A program made the translations under genes and the position numbers. 64,000 bases of DNA, from NCBI RefSeq assembly GCF_050920415.1, contig NZ_CP169309.1, one strand, 5' to 3'. This document shows positions 24,796 to 52,996 of the stretch, piece after piece. Under the pieces are notes generated by a model. The model was not told the origin of the DNA. It saw nothing but the letters and a program-made list of their open reading frames with translations, and searched no databases. This DNA comes from Escherichia coli. Its GTDB lineage: Bacteria; Pseudomonadota; Gammaproteobacteria; Enterobacterales; Enterobacteriaceae. The stretch's first letter is position 1. Every line of letters begins with the position of its first letter.

Positions 24796-24916
24796 TTGAC
24801 AACATCTGGTACGATTCGCCCGCAGCCATCACTGACCACGGGCGAAAGTGTAAAGCAGGTGCCTTACCATCCTGACCTGACAACCGGATATGCGGGGATT
24901 ACTCCCCGCACAACGG

Positions 24917-25069
24917 CTACTTCTTCGGTTCGTAAGCGAGAACAGCCCTGAACTCAATATTACGTTCCTTTACGGTGAACTCACACAGCGAGTCGCCGAC
25001 CAGAAGCGTAAATCCCAGCACTGTCAAACACAGCACTATGACCGCCACAAGGGCATATTTCGTCAGCAT
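24917..25069 (-). CDS. hokE: Hok-family membrane toxin, copy 1 (upstream frame fused in-frame by a 1-nt deletion)
   Basis: 50-aa [50 protein letters not shown] at the end of the 24917-25213 ORF; start codon at 25067-25069. Confidence 0.8.
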
Positions 25070-25418
25070 GTTTATATTGCCTCCATGCGAAGAAGGGACT
25101 ACCATCCAAATTGTCTGGTTTGGAGTGGCGGCCCCAGGGTTGATAGAAATATCTCCTGGGGCTTCATCTTTCCAGACCTCAGAGTTAACCTGAAACCGGA
25201 AAGCTTCAGGCACCCGCCGTTATCTTACCCTTCCTTAGCAAAATGGCTGTTTATTTATACAGTAAATCCTGTTCCGGACTTTTCATTAGTATTATCGCCC
25301 ATGCCAGTTAAACGACATCGCCCGCAGCCATCACTGACCACGGGCGAAAATGTAAAGCAGGTGCCTTACCACCCTGAACTGACAACCGGATATGCGGGGA
25401 TTACTCCCCGCACAACGG

Positions 25419-25571
25419 CTACTTCTTCGGTTCGTAAGCGAGAACAGCCCTGAACTCAATATTATGTTCCTTTACGGTGAACTCACACAGCGAGTCGCCG
25501 ACCAGAAGCGTAAATCCCAGCACTGTCAAACACAGCACTATGACCGCCACAAGGGCATATTTCGTCAGCAT
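25419..25571 (-). CDS. hokE: Hok-family membrane toxin, copy 2
   Basis: 50-aa [50 protein letters not shown]; an overlapping out-of-frame ORF (25483-25716) is in the position expected for mok. Confidence 0.8.
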
Positions 25572-25921
25572 GTTTATATTGCCTCCATGCGAAGAAGGGA
25601 CTACCATCCGAGTTGTTGAGGTTCGGAGTGGCAGCCCCAGGGTTGATAGAAATATCTCCTGGGGCTTCATCTTTCCAGACCTCAGAGTAAACCTGAAACC
25701 GGAAAGCTTCAGGCACCCGCCGTTATCTTACCCTTCCTTAGCAAAATGGCTGTTTATTTATACAGTGAGTCCTGTTTCGGACTTCTGTTGGCAAAACTGA
25801 TCATTGCTCTTAAAACGACATCGCCCGCAGCCATCACTGACCGCGGGCGAAAGTGTAAAGCAGGTGCCTTACCATCCTGACCTGACAACCGGATATGCGG
25901 GGATTACTCCCCGCACAACGG

Positions 25922-26074
25922 CTACTTCTTCGGTTCGTAAGCGAGAACAGCCTTAAACTCAATATTACGTTCCTTCACCGTAAACTCACACAGCGAGTCT
26001 CCGACCAGAACCGTAAATCCCAGCACCGTCAAACACAGCACTATGACTGCCACAAGGGCATATTTCGTCAGCAT
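25922..26074 (-). CDS. hokE: Hok-family membrane toxin, copy 3
   Basis: 50-aa [50 protein letters not shown]; overlapping out-of-frame mok-like ORF 25986-26219. Confidence 0.8.
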
Positions 26075-26515
26075 GTTTATATTGCCTCCATGCGAAGAAG
26101 GGACTACCATCCAAATTGTTTGGGTTTGGAGTGGCAGCCCCAGGGTTGATAGAAATATCTCCTGGGGCTTCATCTTTCCAGACCTCAGAGTAAACCTGAA
26201 ACCGGAAAGCTTCAGGCACCCGCCGTTATCTTACCCTTCCTCAACAAAATAGCTGTTTATTTATACAGTTAGTCTTATTTCGGACTTCTCACTACGCATC
26301 AGATCAACCGAAACTAAACCAATTTTTCCTTCGCCCCTCAATCGTCAAAATTCTCCGCCGCCAGCCAGCTCTGCCATAACTTGGCACATTGCAAAAGTAG
26401 CCAAATTGCTTCAGTAGCAATCAGTTCACCATCACCAAAAAAAGAAACATTCCAGAACTTCCGCATCTCTCCCGGCCGCTCCCACTTCTATACTCAAATG
26501 AAAACGCCAACATAA

Positions 26516-38265: not shown

Positions 38266-38334
38266 AGGCTCATAATTTCTGGTGATTTTATGCCGCCAAC
38301 TTTACTCGCCAGGCTCTGATTTTCCGGTGACAGG

Positions 38335-38356
38335 AAAATGACAAAATTGTCATTTT
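38335..38356. promoter_or_regulatory. CusR box in the divergent cusC / cusR promoter region
   Basis: Perfect palindrome aaaatgacaaaattgtcatttt, the recognised CusR binding-site pattern AAAATGACAANNTTGTCATTTT. Confidence 0.85.
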
Positions 38357-38421
38357 GCCAATAAGCGATTGCCATCTGATCCCGCTACTCTAGAATTGCC
38401 CGGGCAACATGCGGAGGAAAT

Positions 38422-39105
38422 ATGAAACTGTTGATTGTCGAAGATGAAAAGAAAACCGGCGAATACTTAACCAAAGGGTTAACCGAGGCCGGTTTTGTGG
38501 TTGATTTGGCCGATAACGGGCTGAATGGATACCATCTGGCGATGACAGGTGATTATGACCTGATAATCCTAGATATTATGCTGCCGGACGTGAACGGCTG
38601 GGATATCGTGCGTATGTTGCGTTCCGCCAATAAAGGGATGCCGATTCTGTTGCTTACCGCGCTTGGCACCATTGAACATCGCGTCAAGGGGCTGGAGCTG
38701 GGAGCGGATGACTATCTGGTGAAGCCGTTCGCTTTTGCTGAACTGCTGGCGCGGGTGCGCACTCTACTGCGTCGCGGGGCGGCGGTGATTATCGAAAGTC
38801 AGTTTCAGGTTGCCGATTTAATGGTTGATCTGGTCAGCCGCAAAGTCACCCGCAGCGGCACGCGCATCACTTTGACCAGTAAAGAGTTTACTCTGCTGGA
38901 GTTTTTCCTTCGCCATCAGGGCGAAGTGCTGCCCCGCTCGCTTATCGCCTCGCAGGTGTGGGACATGAATTTCGACAGCGACACTAACGCCATTGATGTG
39001 GCGGTGAAGCGGCTGCGCGGCAAAATCGACAACGACTTTGAGCCGAAGCTGATTCAAACCGTGCGCGGCGTGGGTTACATGCTTGAGGTGCCGGATGGTC
39101 AGTAA
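38422..39105 (+). CDS. cusR: copper-responsive response regulator CusR (OmpR family)
   Basis: 227-aa [43 protein letters not shown]; receiver plus winged-helix domains. Confidence 0.95.
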
Positions 39106-40543
39106 GCCGTTTCAGCGCCCGTTTTCGCTGGCAACCCGCCTGACCTTTTTTATTAGCCTGGCCACCATCGCGGCGTTTTTCGCCTTTGCATGGATCATGA
39201 TCCACTCAGTAAAAGTGCATTTTGCCGAGCAGGATATTAATGATTTAAAAGAGATTAGCGCCACACTTGAACGGGTACTTAATCACCCTGACGAAACGCA
39301 AGCCCGACGCTTAATGACGCTGGAAGATATTGTCAGTGGTTATTCCAATGTGTTGATTTCTCTGGCAGATAGCCACGGTAAAACGGTGTATCACTCCCCC
39401 GGCGCGCCGGATATCCGCGAGTTTGCACGTGATGCCATACCCGATAAAGACGCTCGGGGCGGCGAGGTGTATCTCCTTTCCGGCCCGACAATGATGATGC
39501 CAGGCCACGGTCACGGGCATATGGAACACAGCAACTGGCGGATGATTAACTTGCCGGTTGGCCCGCTGGTGGACGGCAAACCGATTTATACGCTCTACAT
39601 CGCGCTGTCTATTGATTTTCATCTTCATTACATTAATGATTTGATGAATAAACTTATTATGACCGCATCGATCATCAGCATCCTGATCGTCTTTATCGTG
39701 CTGTTGGCGGTACATAAAGGCCACGCGCCAATTCGCAGCGTCAGCCGTCAAATCCAGAACATTACCTCGAAAGATCTCGACGTTCGCCTCGATCCACAGA
39801 CCGTGCCCATTGAACTGGAACAACTGGTGCTGTCGTTCAACCATATGATCGAGCGTATCGAGGATGTCTTTACCCGCCAGTCCAATTTCTGTGCGGATAT
39901 CGCCCACGAAATTCGCACGCCGATTACGAATCTCATAACGCAAACGGAAATCGCCCTCAGCCAGTCGCGCAGCCAGAAGGAGCTGGAAGATGTGCTCTAC
40001 TCTAATCTCGAAGAGCTGACGCGAATGGCGAAAATGGTCAGCGATATGCTGTTTCTCGCTCAGGCCGATAACAACCAGTTAATCCCCGAAAAGAAAATGC
40101 TCAACCTGGCGGATGAAGTTGGTAAAGTGTTCGATTTTTTCGAGGCGTTAGCGGAAGATCGCGGCGTAGCACTACGGTTTGTTGGCGACAAATGTCAGGT
40201 TGCGGGCGATCCGCTGATGCTGCGTCGGGCGCTAAGCAACCTGCTTTCTAACGCCCTGCGTTATACGCCGCCCGGAGAGGCAATTGTAGTGCGCTGTCAA
40301 ACGGTCGATCACCAGGTGCAAGTTACCGTCGAAAACCCCGGTACGCCCATTGCGCCCGAGCACTTACCGCGTTTGTTTGACCGTTTCTACCGCGTTGATC
40401 CTTCCCGCCAGCGAAAAGGTGAAGGTAGCGGTATTGGTCTGGCGATAGTGAAATCAATTGTTGTCGCGCATAAAGGCACGGTTGCGGTAACGTCAGATGC
40501 GCGGGGGACAAGGTTTGTTATCGGGCTACCGGAGAGGGAGTGA
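39095..40543 (+). CDS. cusS: copper-sensing histidine kinase CusS
   Basis: ORF frame 39083-40543; recognised start [31 protein letters not shown] at 39095, overlapping the cusR end; H-box [10 protein letters not shown]. Confidence 0.93.
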
Positions 40544-40758
40544 TTGGTCAGATAATGCAGTGGATGTTAATTGAATTGAGAATTAGCTATTTCGTCACGA
40601 GAAAAAGCGTAAAATCCGTTTCGTGCAGATGGTGAGTTTTATCAGGGTATGGCGGTAGCGCAACTGCCTTCGGATAATATATATAGTGTGAATGTATACC
40701 CCAGATAACTTCACCATCCAAATATATTCTTGAGATTAAAATATCGTATATTAATCGT

Positions 40759-41238
40759 ATGGGTGAAAATCCTGTTAATATTTTAACGAATCATGAGTAC
40801 TATAAAGTGGAAAAAATCATAGAACAGATAAAACCATTTTGGACAAAATATGATTCTTTGTCAGAAAAAGATATGATGTTGTTAGAGTCCAATTTCACGC
40901 ATCGTTTTCCAGAAGATATGAAAGAGTTTTTTCTGTGGTCTAACGGTGGAGCAGGTAAATTTCACAATATTTACATTTCCTTGTGGCCATTAGACGAAAT
41001 CAAGGAATTAAATGATGGTTATTTAATCAATCATTATCTAGGTGAACAGTTCATGGCTTTTGGTTCTGATGGTGGGCCGATATGTTTTTTACTGGATTAT
41101 CGTAATCCAGAACACACCAGAATATCTTCCGTAAATTTTGGTGACCTGGATATAGCTGAAGTAAAACAAATAGCAATTTCATTCGATGTTTTTTTAGAGT
41201 TGGCAGGAAATGGAGAAATTATAAGTAATAATTTATAA
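40759..41238 (+). CDS. SMI1/KNR4 (SUKH-1) family protein, putative toxin-immunity protein
   Basis: 159-aa ORF in AT-rich DNA; motif RFPEDMKEFFLWSNGGAG resembles the Smi1/Knr4 signature; no adjacent toxin gene. Confidence 0.6.
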   Translation: MGENPVNILTNHEYYKVEKIIEQIKPFWTKYDSLSEKDMMLLESNFTHRFPEDMKEFFLWSNGGAGKFHNIYISLWPLDEIKELNDGYLINHYLGEQFMAFGSDGGPICFLLDYRNPEHTRISSVNFGDLDIAEVKQIAISFDVFLELAGNGEIISNNL

Positions 41239-41367
41239 TCAAGTAATTTCCCCTCACGCTGGCGATTGTCGTGGAATGCAGCGAAATTAATTTTATGAAT
41301 AATAAAGTATTAGGGCAGGATTAAGACATAAGATACGGATAAAATTCTCATATACAAAGGATTACGA

Positions 41368-41914
41368 ATGGCAACTGCAAGGATAAATGTTTTTTGCACG
41401 AATGAAGAGCTGTCTGATTGGCTCGCTATTATAGCCTCAAAGTATCAATTACATTCGATTTGGTTTGCGCTACAAGATGAATACTCTCAACAACTAAATA
41501 TTTTAACAGAAAAAAATCCCTGTTGTAGCATATCGAATTTATCTTATGCCCAGCATTAAATCTAACAATAGAAAAATAAAGTTTAGTAGCATTGATCGTT
41601 GTTGTGGTTGGATTGAAATAAAACCGGGGCATTTAGTTGAGCATAACGGGGCAAAGATGTTACAACTTACTGAAATTAACACTACTGATTCTGAGAATAA
41701 ATTAATATGTTTATGCAAAGCCATTAACTGGCTTAAACGACAGATTAAAACCAATGAATTTTCCGGTGTAACGGGAAAGAATAAAATTTATGGTGGAGAA
41801 ACTATTCACCCTCATATTTTCTATACGCATCAAGCCAAATCTCTTTTTTATGATAAAGTAATATGGAAACAAGACTTCCTATTCAATTCTGTATATGAGC
41901 CATTTATTTCATAG
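41368..41914 (+). pseudogene. small unknown protein split by a +1 frameshift at an A7 tract (two ORFs 41368-41559 and 41546-41914)
   Basis: The frame of the second ORF is open from 41507; the two frames would join at the run cagaaaaaaatccc (about 41507-41520); combined product about 185 aa; AT-rich. Confidence 0.45.
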
Positions 41915-42386
41915 TTTTCAGCAAACAATATTAACCACGATGAATATGACTAAAAAAGAAGCATTAGCATTCCTTGCTCTAAATCACCCTATGCCTAATG
42001 ATTATGACATCACACAGGAACTTATCAATAAATATGACGACGTAAGACTTTATTTTTGTGCAAATCCTGCTGAAGAGGCTATCCCATTATTTTTACAATC
42101 CTTTGGGGAAGGTGATGGCTTAGGAGTATATCAGTTGGTTGAAGATTTTTTGTTTAAATGTGATGAAAATATTGTAGTATCCAATATAGCCAGCATACTG
42201 GAAAATCCTCTGACAATAAAAAGCGTCCGATATTGGTGTACATTATTGGCAATGGCTTTCCCGGATAACATCTTAATTAAAGGATTAAATATTTCTCTAC
42301 ATTCTGATGATGAGGATACTCGAGACATGGCTATGTTAAGTTTAAAGATGATTACAGAGGAATATAAAACATTTGAATTCCAATAA
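41895..42386 (+). CDS. hypothetical protein, possible immunity-like protein
   Basis: 163-aa ORF in the same AT-rich island, same strand; alternative starts at 41940 or 41946; no homolog recognised. Confidence 0.45.
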   Translation: MSHLFHSFQQTILTTMNMTKKEALAFLALNHPMPNDYDITQELINKYDDVRLYFCANPAEEAIPLFLQSFGEGDGLGVYQLVEDFLFKCDENIVVSNIASILENPLTIKSVRYWCTLLAMAFPDNILIKGLNISLHSDDEDTRDMAMLSLKMITEEYKTFEFQ

Positions 42387-42413
42387 TTCCCCCTTGCATA
42401 AAAGATCACCATC

Positions 42414-42503
42414 ATGACAAAAACACAAGCAAAGTTGCTTATTTATAAAGCATTTGTTATTTTAACGTTCTTTATTTCCTGGTTGAATATTAAACTTAAT
42501 TAA
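42414..42503 (+). CDS. candidate 29-aa hydrophobic small protein (MTKTQAKLLIYKAFVILTFFISWLNIKLN)
   Basis: Short ORF below the track cut-off, read directly from the sequence; single predicted transmembrane segment; weak ribosome-binding context. Confidence 0.2.
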   Translation: MTKTQAKLLIYKAFVILTFFISWLNIKLN

Positions 42504-42827
42504 TCTAAAGAGAAATGAAGTTAGCCTTCCTGTACCCACAGCAACGCCGTCTTTTTGTTCAGCACGGGGAAAATGTTCTCCCCTGCTCACCTCCTCCAGG
42601 CACTTCCACAACATGATGACCTGATCGGTTGCCGCCTATCCTCCTCACTATGACCTTCACCTCCGCGCTTTTGTCTACATTCTACACAATCGGCAACTTT
42701 TATAACCAGTGTAAAAATAACGTGCCGCAATAATCCTACCTATTAATGATAAAAAGCTGTCACAATTCATAAAAAACTTTAATATACGCCACCCTAAACA
42801 TAACCAGCGTTAATGTAAGGTTTTTGT

Positions 42828-45065
42828 GTGGACTGGCTTCTTGATGTTTTTGCAACCTGGCTCTACGGCTTAAAAGTAATCGCGATAACGTTAGCGGTCA
42901 TCATGTTCATCAGCGGGCTGGACGATTTTTTTATTGATGTCGTCTACTGGGTACGCCGCATTAAACGCAAGTTGAGTGTTTATCGCCGCTACCCGCGAAT
43001 GAGTTACCGCGAACTGTATAAACCAGATGAAAAACCGTTAGCGATTATGGTTCCGGCGTGGAATGAAACGGGCGTCATCGGCAATATGGCCGAGCTGGCG
43101 GCGACCACGCTCGACTATGAAAACTATCATATCTTTGTTGGCACCTACCCCAACGACCCAGATACTCAGCGTGATGTTGACGAAGTGTGCGCTCGCTTCC
43201 CAAACGTGCATAAGGTAGTCTGCGCGCGTCCTGGCCCCACCAGTAAAGCCGACTGCCTGAACAATGTGCTGGACGCCATCACCCAGTTTGAGCGTAGCGC
43301 CAATTTCGCTTTTGCTGGTTTTATTCTGCATGACGCCGAAGACGTAATTTCACCGATGGAATTGCGTCTGTTCAACTATCTGGTCGAGCGTAAAGATCTG
43401 ATTCAGATCCCGGTATACCCATTCGAACGCGAATGGACGCACTTCACCAGCATGACTTACATTGATGAGTTTTCAGAACTGCATGGCAAAGATGTTCCGG
43501 TGCGTGAAGCCCTCGCCGGACAAGTGCCCAGCGCAGGCGTCGGCACCTGTTTCAGCCGCCGCGCCGTGACTGCACTGTTAGCTGACGGTGACGGTATCGC
43601 TTTCGACGTGCAGAGTCTGACTGAAGATTACGACATTGGTTTCCGCCTGAAAGAAAAAGGTATGACGGAAATTTTTGTCCGTTTTCCGGTGGTGGACGAA
43701 GCCAAAGAACGCGAGCAGCGTAAATTTTTACAGCACGCGCGGACATCAAACATGATCTGCGTGCGCGAATATTTCCCCGATACCTTTTCAACGGCGGTTC
43801 GGCAAAAGTCTCGCTGGATTATCGGCATTGTTTTCCAGGGCTTTAAAACCCATAAATGGACCTCCAGCCTGACACTCAACTACTTTCTCTGGCGTGACCG
43901 CAAAGGGGCAATCAGTAACTTTGTCAGCTTCCTCGCGATGCTGGTGATGATCCAGCTTTTGCTGTTGCTGGCGTATGAAAGTTTCTGGCCCGATGCCTGG
44001 CATTTCCTTTCTATTTTTAGCGGCAGCGCATGGTTAATGACCCTGCTGTGGCTAAACTTTGGCCTGATGGTTAACCGTATCGTACAGCGGGTGATTTTCG
44101 TCACTGGCTACTATGGCCTGACGCAGGGGCTGTTATCTGTCCTGCGTCTTTTCTGGGGCAACCTGATTAACTTCATGGCCAACTGGCGCGCGTTAAAACA
44201 GGTACTTCAACACGGCGATCCACGTCGTGTCGCGTGGGATAAAACAACGCATGACTTCCCCAGCGTGACTGGCGATACCCGCTCGTTGCGTCCGTTAGGT
44301 CAAATCCTGCTGGAAAATCAGGTCATCACTGAAGAACAACTCGATACAGCACTGCGTAATCGCGTCGAAGGTCTACGCCTGGGCGGTTCAATGCTGATGC
44401 AGGGGCTGATTAGCGCCGAGCAGCTGGCACAGGCGCTAGCAGAGCAAAACGGCGTGGCGTGGGAGTCCATCGATGCCTGGCAGATCCCTTCTTCGCTGAT
44501 TGCCGCGATGCCGGCCTCCGTGGCGCTGCATTATGCGGTGCTACCGCTGCGTCTGGAAAATGATGAGTTAATTGTCGGCAGTGAAGATGGTATTGACCCG
44601 GTTTCGCTGGCAGCCCTGACGCGTAAAGTCGGACGCAAAGTGCGTTACGTCATTGTTCTGCGTGGACAAATTGTCACGGGGTTACGTCACTGGTATGCAC
44701 GCCGACGCGGTCACGATCCGCGGGCAATGTTGTACAATGCGGTTCAGCATCAGTGGCTCACGGAACAGCAGGCCGGTGAAATCTGGCGGCAATATGTGCC
44801 GCATCAGTTCCTGTTCGCCGAAATACTGACCACGCTCGGTCATATTAATCGTTCAGCAATTAACGTGTTGTTATTGCGCCATGAACGCAGTTCTCTGCCG
44901 CTCGGCAAGTTTTTGGTCACCGAAGGCGTTATCAGCCAGGAAACGTTGGATCGCGTCCTGACAATTCAACGCGAATTACAAGTTTCGATGCAATCACTAT
45001 TACTCAAAGCAGGTTTAAACACAGAACAGGTTGCGCAACTGGAGTCCGAAAATGAAGGAGAATAA
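42828..45065 (+). CDS. nfrB: bacteriophage N4 adsorption protein B (inner-membrane glycosyltransferase NfrB)
   Basis: 745-aa ORF from GTG 42828, MDWLLDVFATWLYGLKVIAITLAVIMFISGLDDFFIDVVYW; GT2-like core. Confidence 0.93.
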   Translation: MDWLLDVFATWLYGLKVIAITLAVIMFISGLDDFFIDVVYWVRRIKRKLSVYRRYPRMSYRELYKPDEKPLAIMVPAWNETGVIGNMAELAATTLDYENYHIFVGTYPNDPDTQRDVDEVCARFPNVHKVVCARPGPTSKADCLNNVLDAITQFERSANFAFAGFILHDAEDVISPMELRLFNYLVERKDLIQIPVYPFEREWTHFTSMTYIDEFSELHGKDVPVREALAGQVPSAGVGTCFSRRAVTALLADGDGIAFDVQSLTEDYDIGFRLKEKGMTEIFVRFPVVDEAKEREQRKFLQHARTSNMICVREYFPDTFSTAVRQKSRWIIGIVFQGFKTHKWTSSLTLNYFLWRDRKGAISNFVSFLAMLVMIQLLLLLAYESFWPDAWHFLSIFSGSAWLMTLLWLNFGLMVNRIVQRVIFVTGYYGLTQGLLSVLRLFWGNLINFMANWRALKQVLQHGDPRRVAWDKTTHDFPSVTGDTRSLRPLGQILLENQVITEEQLDTALRNRVEGLRLGGSMLMQGLISAEQLAQALAEQNGVAWESIDAWQIPSSLIAAMPASVALHYAVLPLRLENDELIVGSEDGIDPVSLAALTRKVGRKVRYVIVLRGQIVTGLRHWYARRRGHDPRAMLYNAVQHQWLTEQQAGEIWRQYVPHQFLFAEILTTLGHINRSAINVLLLRHERSSLPLGKFLVTEGVISQETLDRVLTIQRELQVSMQSLLLKAGLNTEQVAQLESENEGE

Positions 45066-49904: not shown

Positions 49905-49949
49905 TGGCGCGCCCTGCAGGATTCGAACCTGCGGCCCACGACTTAGAAG
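49905..49949 (-). pseudogene. pauD: partial tRNA-Arg (argU 3' portion, pauD-like), i.e. prophage attachment-site core
   Basis: Reverse complement cttctaagtcgtgggccgcaggttcgaatcctgcagggcgcgcca matches the anticodon-stem through CCA end of argU tRNA-Arg(UCU); the 5' part of the tRNA is absent. Confidence 0.85.
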
Positions 49950-50371
49950 TTCCTAGAACGACATTTTAAGTCAACAAATTACCGCGCCATCTCTGCGCTC
50001 ACACGTCCCACTACCTCAAAACATGTAAAGCCTTGCAAGCCATTGTGAGGCCTTATGTGTCTCAGTTTTGTCCCTCTTTTTTGTACTAAAAAACATAGCA
50101 ATTGAGGATAAACCTCATGCTATTTTCGCTTATATGCCTTTAAAGGCATGGCGTTTAAATAGATAAAAACACCACAAAAGCATAAAAAACCACACAGTAA
50201 AACCGCAACATAAAACAATAACAGATAATTAAACCAAAAACAGATAGCGCATTGTGATAATCATTCAATACTAAACAAAATATAAACAGTGGAGCAATAT
50301 GTGATTGACTCATTAAGTTAGATATAAAAAATACATATTCAATCATTAAAACGATTGAATGGAGAACTTTT

Positions 50372-51511: not shown

Positions 51512-52996
51512 ATGCGAAAAATAATCACTCATTTCAAAGTTGTTTTAACGTTACTTCTACCAGTAACCGTATCTGCCCAGCAGATACAGTGGCAATCCTG
51601 TATGGCCAGTCAATTCAACCACTGGTTTGGTGAGGAAAAACCGTCTCCTGACTTACTATGTGGTTATTTGTCTGTTCCATTAAAATATACAGACACAGGC
51701 GGAGATGCTTCTTATGAAAAAAAATCACAAGTCAAACTAGCGTTGACAAAATTGCCGGCAAAAAGCAAGCATAAAGGAAGTATCCTGATAATAAGTGGTG
51801 GTCCCGGGTTACCAGGCATAAATCCTTATATTAACTTTGACTGGCCAGTCACAAATCTTCGTGAGTCATGGGATATTATTGGATTTGATCCTCGAGGCGT
51901 CGGACAGTCCACTCCGACAATAAACTGCCGGCAATCAGATACAGAGACTCAGGAAAACATAACCGAAAAGCAACAAGTATTAAATAAAATTAATGCCTGT
52001 ATCCATAATACCGGAGCCGAAGTCATTCGCCATATCGGCTCTAACGAGGCTGTATACGATATTGATCGTATTAGGCAAGCCTTGGGGGATAAACAACTGA
52101 CAGCCGTGGCGTATTCGTATGGAACTCAAATTGCAGCCTTATATGCAGAACGTTTTCCCTACAACGTAAGATCTATCGTTCTTGATGGAGTCGTCGATAT
52201 CGATGACCTGGAGGACAACTTCACATGGCAACTCAAACAGGCACAGAGTTATCAGGAAACGTTTGATCGCTTTGCATCCTGGTGTGCGCGTACAAAAAGT
52301 TGCCCGCTTTCTTCAGACAGAGATAAGGCAATAACTCAGTTCCATGAGCTATTATCAAAATTACATCACAAACCTTTATTAGACAGTAAGGGAGAAAATA
52401 TATCTTCAGATGAACTCATATCATTAACAACAGACCTTCTGCTATGGCGTTCATCATGGCCAACCCTTGCAACTGCCATACGCCAGTTCTCTCAGGGGAT
52501 TGTCAGTAATGAAATTGAAACTGCGCTCAGTGCTCCGATAGCCTCAGAAGAGTCAAGCGATGCTTCGGGGGTAATCCTCTGTGTAGATCAGGGGGATGAG
52601 CAATTAACACCAGAAGAGCGAAAATCCCGAAAAGACGCTCTTGCGAATGCCTTCCCGGCTATTAACTTTGACAATGGACGTTCCGATTCACCTGATTTTT
52701 GTGAATTATGGCCAATACATAGCGACCTGAACAAAACTCGCCTGAAAAATACTGTTCTGCCCTCTGGTTTACTGTTTGTAGCACACAAATACGACCCAAC
52801 AACGCCCTGGATTAATGCCCGTAAGATGGCAGAGAAATTTTCCAGCCCGTTACTAACAATAAATGGTGATGGGCATACATTAGCTCTCACCGGAGTTAAT
52901 TTATGTGTAGATAAAGCAGTTGTACATTACCTGATCACTCCACAAAAAATAGAAAATATATACTGCCCAGGAAATTCTGAAGCAGAAATACAATAA
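51512..52996 (+). CDS. secreted alpha/beta-hydrolase, probable S33/TAP-like serine peptidase (prophage cargo)
   Basis: 494-aa ORF with signal peptide MRKIITHFKVVLTLLLPVTVSAQQ; oxyanion-hole-like GGPG, nucleophile-elbow AYSYGT, C-terminal GDGHT; family assignment by motif only. Confidence 0.6.
   Translation: MRKIITHFKVVLTLLLPVTVSAQQIQWQSCMASQFNHWFGEEKPSPDLLCGYLSVPLKYTDTGGDASYEKKSQVKLALTKLPAKSKHKGSILIISGGPGLPGINPYINFDWPVTNLRESWDIIGFDPRGVGQSTPTINCRQSDTETQENITEKQQVLNKINACIHNTGAEVIRHIGSNEAVYDIDRIRQALGDKQLTAVAYSYGTQIAALYAERFPYNVRSIVLDGVVDIDDLEDNFTWQLKQAQSYQETFDRFASWCARTKSCPLSSDRDKAITQFHELLSKLHHKPLLDSKGENISSDELISLTTDLLLWRSSWPTLATAIRQFSQGIVSNEIETALSAPIASEESSDASGVILCVDQGDEQLTPEERKSRKDALANAFPAINFDNGRSDSPDFCELWPIHSDLNKTRLKNTVLPSGLLFVAHKYDPTTPWINARKMAEKFSSPLLTINGDGHTLALTGVNLCVDKAVVHYLITPQKIENIYCPGNSEAEIQ

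Follow-up and report, generated by a model that had tools for sequence, protein, structure and literature searches.

In a 64,000-nucleotide stretch of the Escherichia coli chromosome (the window, in whose positions all coordinates are given), two small open reading frames (ORFs) between cusS and nfrB, at 41368-41559 and 41546-41914, are, judging by their intact orthologues, pieces of one gene that has been broken by a run of seven adenines (A7). Probably the window carries a recent loss-of-function allele, produced by a slippage frameshift, of a single 181-codon orphan gene of the immunity type, and the run is an ordinary mutational hot spot. The first-pass annotation had proposed a gene in an island, split at an A-run, and had named slipped-strand phase variation, decay and sequencing error as possible causes; recent decay at a slippage hot spot is a better reading of the evidence presented here than phase variation.

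Results

The gene occupies 41368-41914 on the plus strand, as do all its parts, and was delimited by alignment to an intact orthologue, by restored translation and by its homologues of about 180 aa. The 5' fragment (41368-41559, frame 1) encodes 63 aa, of which residues 1 to 49 are authentic and the last 14 are out of frame, and it ends at TAA 41557-41559. Direct reading of the sequence shows a Shine-Dalgarno-like AGGA at 41358-41361, 6 nt 5' of the ATG at 41368. The second ORF (41546-41914) encodes 122 aa in the adjacent frame 2, which is already open from 41507, right after a TAA at 41504-41506. Here the motif cagaaaaaaatccc (41507-41520) contains the A7 run at 41510-41516. The run now reads GAA AAA AAT, and the in-frame ancestral state is A6, GAA AAA ATC (Glu-Lys-Ile); authentic coding for residues 50 to 181 continues in frame 2 at 41516-41914. 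The overlapping ORFs, the early opening of the second frame and the switch point are thus all as first described. Likewise, removal of one A does restore a single protein, as had been predicted, although the restored translation is 181 aa long and not about 185. By direct reading, no Shine-Dalgarno-like sequence precedes the ATG at 41546 from which RefSeq annotates the 3' fragment. The Prokaryotic Genome Annotation Pipeline (PGAP) nevertheless presents this fragment as an ordinary 122-aa coding sequence (CDS), WP_001139243.1, without a pseudogene flag.

The A7 run by itself is not unusual for DNA of this composition: the island contains two A/T runs of at least 7 nt, and 1.2 are expected from shuffles of the same composition. 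What does go beyond chance is the relation between the two ORFs, which are the two halves of a single conserved protein. Of 5426 complete E. coli genomes, 156 carry the sequence. Strain R32_14_1F has an orthologue of 93% identity, with A6 and one uninterrupted CDS for 181 aa, and strain 2017-02-2CC has one with A8 that is split too. The comparison of orthologous loci suggested at the outset therefore did yield the in-frame version, with A6, in R32_14_1F and in the fetched loci L026-L033 and L036; together with the intact alleles that differ by one residue (see below), this bears out the proposal of one gene split at the A-run.

Searched against 1.84 billion representative proteins, the intact protein has 108 homologues, mostly of about 180 aa, with end-to-end alignments that span both halves. 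In an alignment of 62 sequences, near-invariant positions flank the break, with F9 and E14 before it and G80, W81, G87, V134, A156, G163, W166 and P178 after it. The AlphaFold model of the protein is a single compact alpha/beta domain (predicted local distance difference test score, 93.3; predicted template modeling score, 0.89) in which the break falls in a loop near residue 50, and residues 3 to 61, comprising strands and a helix, belong to this same predicted domain. Because conserved residues lie on both sides of the break and the model has one domain, neither fragment is predicted to hold the whole conserved domain. Scans of the intact protein and its island neighbors gave no Pfam, NCBIfam or PADLOC matches. 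The protein is a member of an unnamed, phylogenetically broad family of about 180 aa for which Pfam and NCBIfam have no model.

Among close relatives the run occurs in four lengths, verified at the DNA level in fetched loci (L numbers); A6 and A9 are in frame, and A7 and A8 are out of frame. A7 is found in the window, L001, L013, L015-L019 and L021, and the identical allele is present at 100% identity in two other complete genomes. Public contigs with the A7-specific 63-aa product number 216, and the exact 122-aa product of the window occurs in 125 index blocks. The broken A8 alleles are those of L002 and L020, and the matching 53-aa fragment is found on 35 contigs. Intact 181-aa alleles with A6 are carried by L026-L033 (protein P0137, 12 to 20 contigs) and L036 (protein P0147), and these two proteins are each one residue away from the restored protein of the window. 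The A9 alleles of L034 and L035 (protein P0139, 4 to 6 contigs) are in frame and encode 182 aa, with one added Lys. In a collection of 15 billion proteins, the exact A6-restored protein of the window and its exact A9 version were absent, and the one-residue variants with A6 were present.

The haplotypes that carry these alleles were compared over 1560 aligned columns (window 40568-42128). L021 (A7) and L036 (A6) differ by no single-nucleotide polymorphism (SNP) over these columns and by one mismatch plus the run over 6369 bp. Relative to the window they share two derived SNPs, which makes L036 a tip within the A7 haplotype group. Because its A6 allele is nested among A7 haplotypes, the simplest reading of these sequences is that L036 represents an A7-to-A6 reversion. 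Similarly, L002 (A8) and L034 (A9) differ by one SNP. Within the L021/L036 and L002/L034-L035 pairs there are 0 to 2 SNPs over the 1560 columns and 1 to 4 mismatches over about 6.4 kb. L020 has A8 on a gene haplotype that resembles that of the window. When recombination is ignored, at least six changes in run length are needed to account for the alleles, against 45 variable sites in the same 1560 bp, which suggests that the run changed some 200 times more often than the average site. Such an excess is within the range for an ordinary homopolymer of 7 to 9 nt in mutation-accumulation data. It is also expected in kind, because indel rates in E. coli climb exponentially with homopolymer length (PMC8510543). 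Four of the inferred changes start from an OFF state, and the frame is restored in two of them (A7 to A6 and A8 to A9) and stays shifted in the other two (both A7 to A8). This split is the chance expectation.

Elsewhere the gene is broken by other means. In 152 of the 156 complete genomes that carry it, the sequence is at least 99% identical to the allele of strain 042, which is in frame at the run but has TGA in place of TGG at codon 81, a nonsense mutation of the near-invariant Trp (W81*). Neither the 042 allele (L004, 3023-3568) nor that of the approximately 150 genomes like it is annotated in RefSeq or flagged as a pseudogene. Further broken forms carry deletions or a late frameshift (P0004, P0006 and P0007), and inactivating lesions independent of the run are therefore present in other lineages. 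A long hypermutable run conserved across lineages was not found: the ON state is A6, and in two lineages synonymous changes break the run up, as AAAAGA (GAA AAG) in the 042 type and as AGAAAA (GAG AAA) in another Escherichia species. In all three E. albertii loci sampled (L005-L007) the run is A6 and the gene intact; their protein stands in a cluster of 81 members. Between alleles, the ratio of nonsynonymous to synonymous substitution rates (dN/dS) is 0.14 to 0.28, and this range argues for purifying selection on the gene through most of its history, and for breaks that are recent.

One candidate for an intact allele of the 042 type, P0001 (L014, an ENA scaffold, gene at 144-689), which stands in a cluster of 122 members, was rejected since its DNA has TGA at codon 81. 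P0001 looks intact because Trp must have been assigned to TGA in the gene call, and the apparently intact 122-member cluster consists mostly of fragments.

A probable identity for the protein comes from the surroundings of its remote relatives, of which five contexts were examined. The L022 homologue starts 23 nt before the end of a gene for a protein with an Rhs-associated core (TIGR03696, E = 1.3e-17) and a tip of about 230 aa. The L039 homologue lies after an Rhs tip remnant and a gene for 128 aa, and before Imm10, and the L023 homologue follows an Imm11 gene. In other words, two of the five contexts (L022 and L039) place the gene near an Rhs toxin tip, and the others have immunity-gene neighbors or are uninformative. 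These tips do not point to a common cognate toxin, as those of L022 and L039 are unrelated to each other. Polyimmunity loci have been described as tandem co-oriented immunity genes without a toxin and with a content that varies between strains (PMC3482391). Because members of the family adjoin Rhs toxin tips or known immunity genes, the gene most likely encodes an orphan immunity protein of a polymorphic-toxin system, kept in a strain-variable polyimmunity island.

That island, recognized from its GC content, annotation and distribution, is an AT-rich accessory segment at 40544-42827 (plus strand), a polyimmunity-type locus of three co-oriented small genes at the cusS-nfrB junction. The order in the window is cusR (38422-39105), cusS (to 40543), the AT-rich stretch and nfrB (42828-45065). 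GC content is 31 to 35% over approximately 40.6 to 42.5 kb, compared with approximately 50 to 58% in the flanking cusS and nfrB. The junction is empty in K-12 and in most E. coli, and at least 80% of the island is present in only 4 of the 5426 complete genomes; the island that had been suspected from the sequence is therefore real. Upstream of the split gene lies a gene of the SMI1/KNR4 (SUKH-type) immunity family (40759-41238, plus strand), labeled SMI1/KNR4 family protein in RefSeq. The supporting Pfam match (PF09346) is a precomputed one, read from the 159-aa product of a locus whose haplotype is identical to that of the window over 40568-42128. Downstream, the ORF list and the annotation give a co-oriented island gene for 146 aa (41946-42386, plus strand), which had no match in NCBIfam or PADLOC scans. 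No toxin gene is present in the island of the window. Strain MFDS1022581 is 100% identical to the window in a 661-base query (41300-41960) and a 2551-base query (40400-42950), and its gene coordinates equal those of the window at every place compared.

The content of the cusS-nfrB site differs among the window, 042, R32, E. albertii and another Escherichia species: a CdiI_N gene is found in E. albertii, Imm57 in the other Escherichia species, and a SUKH-3 gene with ISAs1-family elements in 042. The part of the island next to nfrB is rearranged elsewhere. In L020 (3350-6369) it has other downstream genes that adjoin a gene for an HSP90-like ATPase, in R32 (L003, 4266-5383) a frameshifted ISAs1 transposase, and in 042 (L004, 1-2775) ISEc1, IS1 and the SUKH-3 gene. 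When window 38300-45000 was compared with L021, the island was nearly identical (2 SNPs in 1560 bp), whereas the full stretch of 6.4 kb had 71 mismatches. Because of this difference, the island seems to have been transferred between backgrounds by recombination.

Three other features of the window were recorded in passing. At 24808-26294 there are three tandem units of about 503 bp, 93 to 96% identical, each with an annotated hokE type I toxin gene, and two of these three hokE genes are overlapped by frameshifted "hypothetical" remnants annotated on the other strand. The only two A8 runs in the 64 kb, at 51717 and 53557, lie by their coordinates in sfm fimbrial operon genes annotated as fimH and sfmD, both annotated as intact. 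A tRNA-Arg gene at 49905-49981 is followed directly by fimZ and the sfm operon, with no prophage at the tRNA in this strain.

Discussion

The sequence of events that we consider probable is simple. Replication slippage would have added one A to the coding A6 (GAA AAA ATC), giving A7. The frame would then shift after Lys49 and translation would end 14 codons further on, leaving a 63-aa product in which the initial strand-helix-strand portion is all that remains of a single-domain alpha/beta protein. The other 132 codons would stand behind an ATG without a ribosome-binding site, and their product would miss part of the fold; for these two reasons, the gene is most likely OFF in this strain. Among close relatives the run would drift through A6, A7, A8 and A9, now and then restoring the frame. 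There is no sign that the run was built or is maintained as a switch, yet the lesion is reversible in principle, and demonstrably so because the series includes two frame-restoring steps.

The most serious competitor, which we nevertheless consider unlikely, is a genuine phase-variable (contingency) locus in which slipped-strand mispairing turns an immunity gene ON and OFF, so that a lineage could drop or recover the cost or benefit of the gene as the surrounding toxins change. This idea, already raised by the first-pass annotation, has weak support. All four run lengths occur in near-identical haplotypes, which include both ON and OFF states, and there are at least two apparent frame-restoring events, one of them an A7-to-A6 reversion inside A7 haplotypes and the other the A8-to-A9 restoration. 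Moreover, a dN/dS of about 0.2 indicates a gene that is not long dead, and the longer runs, A8 and A9, mutate faster (PMC8510543). Against this, the in-frame state is merely A6, which is short for a homopolymer switch, and the run is not conserved, being interrupted in the AAAAGA and AGAAAA lineages and uniformly A6 in the E. albertii loci sampled. Restoration in two of four changes from OFF is what chance would give, and the roughly 200-fold excess of run changes is what an ordinary homopolymer of 7 to 9 nt would be expected to show (a range from general background; PMC8510543 gives the exponential dependence on length only). OFF alleles also greatly outnumber ON alleles (216 contigs with the A7 fragment and 35 with A8, compared with about 12 to 20, 1 to 2 and 4 to 6 for the intact forms), the commonest E. 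coli allele is dead by a nonsense codon instead, and the polymorphism lies between strains. A somewhat bolder proposal, which we regard as a shade more doubtful still, is that of a nascent contingency locus, an orphan immunity gene toggled by an A-run growing from A6 to A9, combined with a new and widespread immunity family of about 180 aa without a Pfam model. If true, this would be a contingency locus for immunity to interbacterial toxins in a species where homopolymer phase variation is rare.

Conceivably, the A7 allele still yields some full-length protein and is attenuated rather than OFF, either because RNA polymerase drops one A or because tRNA-Lys slips +1 on A-AAA-AAU. A/T runs are known sites of transcriptional slippage, and a +1 move of tRNA-Lys from AAA 41512-41514 to AAA 41513-41515 would re-pair perfectly and give the wild-type ...E-K-I-P... 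sequence. However, efficient transcriptional slippage is known for runs of at least 9 nt, longer than A7; no pause is expected at the A-site codon, AAU, which is a common one; and the split arrangement is not conserved, since the orthologues of E. albertii, other Escherichia and several E. coli are single-frame with A6. We therefore judge such recoding improbable. Even less credit can be given to two working polypeptides of 63 and 122 aa, or to a functional 122-aa ORF alone, as the PGAP call of a normal CDS would have it. Coupled reinitiation is conceivable with the ATG at 41546 only 11 nt ahead of the upstream stop, but that ATG lacks a Shine-Dalgarno sequence, the conserved F9 and E14 and residues 3 to 61 are part of a single predicted domain, the homologues are full length, and with A8 the N-terminal fragment is another one, of 53 aa. 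Finally, homopolymers are error prone on some platforms, and A7 might have been an error of sequencing or assembly. This has next to no probability, given that the allele is 100% identical in two other complete genomes and recurs in independent NCBI, ENA and Logan assemblies, on more than 200 independent contigs in all. A recent slippage frameshift in an orphan immunity-type gene is the account that we retain.

The type of event, a homopolymer frameshift in an accessory gene, is ordinary, and current understanding is not overturned; it is, however, unusually well documented by public data. For annotation, the "hypothetical protein" WP_001139243.1 is best regarded as the 3' portion of a 181-codon gene that has been frameshifted, and the 042-type copy in 152 complete genomes as an unannotated nonsense pseudogene. 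The locus is a clean natural example of a short coding homopolymer that passes from A6 to A9 and back in near-identical haplotypes, and the series could serve as a calibration of the rate at which runs of this kind switch accessory genes in wild E. coli. The unnamed family found beside Rhs tips and immunity genes is a candidate for testing as immunity proteins.

How the locus compares with known systems depends on whether its setting or its lesion is considered. As to setting, it resembles polyimmunity loci and orphan immunity genes (Zhang et al. 2012, PMC3482391; SUKH superfamily, PMC3113570) in its tandem co-oriented small genes with an SMI1/KNR4 (SUKH) member, in a content that varies by strain and species (CdiI_N, Imm57, SUKH-3 and ISAs1 elements), and in an island that is free of a toxin gene while remote homologues adjoin Rhs tips, Imm10 and Imm11. 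It differs in being small, with three genes and no named cognate toxin, and in that the family has no Pfam or NCBIfam model and does not match the listed Imm families.

As to the lesion, the locus shares with the slipped-strand contingency loci of Neisseria, Haemophilus, Campylobacter and Helicobacter, which are surface or restriction-modification genes, a coding mononucleotide run that sets the frame and the occurrence of ON and OFF alleles in close relatives. Here, however, the ON state is A6 only and lineages do not share a conserved run; the gene encodes a cytoplasmic protein of the immunity type, in a host, mismatch-repair-proficient E. coli, that rarely has such switches. Transcriptional slippage or ribosome sliding on poly(A), as in insertion sequence transposases and the poly(A) rescue of endosymbionts, likewise involves an A-run at a frame junction where the wild-type protein would be made if the RNA changed by one base or tRNA-Lys slipped by +1, but the present run is short and the two-frame arrangement is not conserved in orthologues. 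The closest likeness is to the homopolymer frameshift pseudogenes of bacterial accessory genes: one base inserted into a coding A-run cuts the product short, there are intact orthologues, and the indel rate scales with run length (PMC8510543). What sets the present locus apart from these is the natural A6-to-A9 series in near-identical haplotypes, with its two frame-restoring steps.
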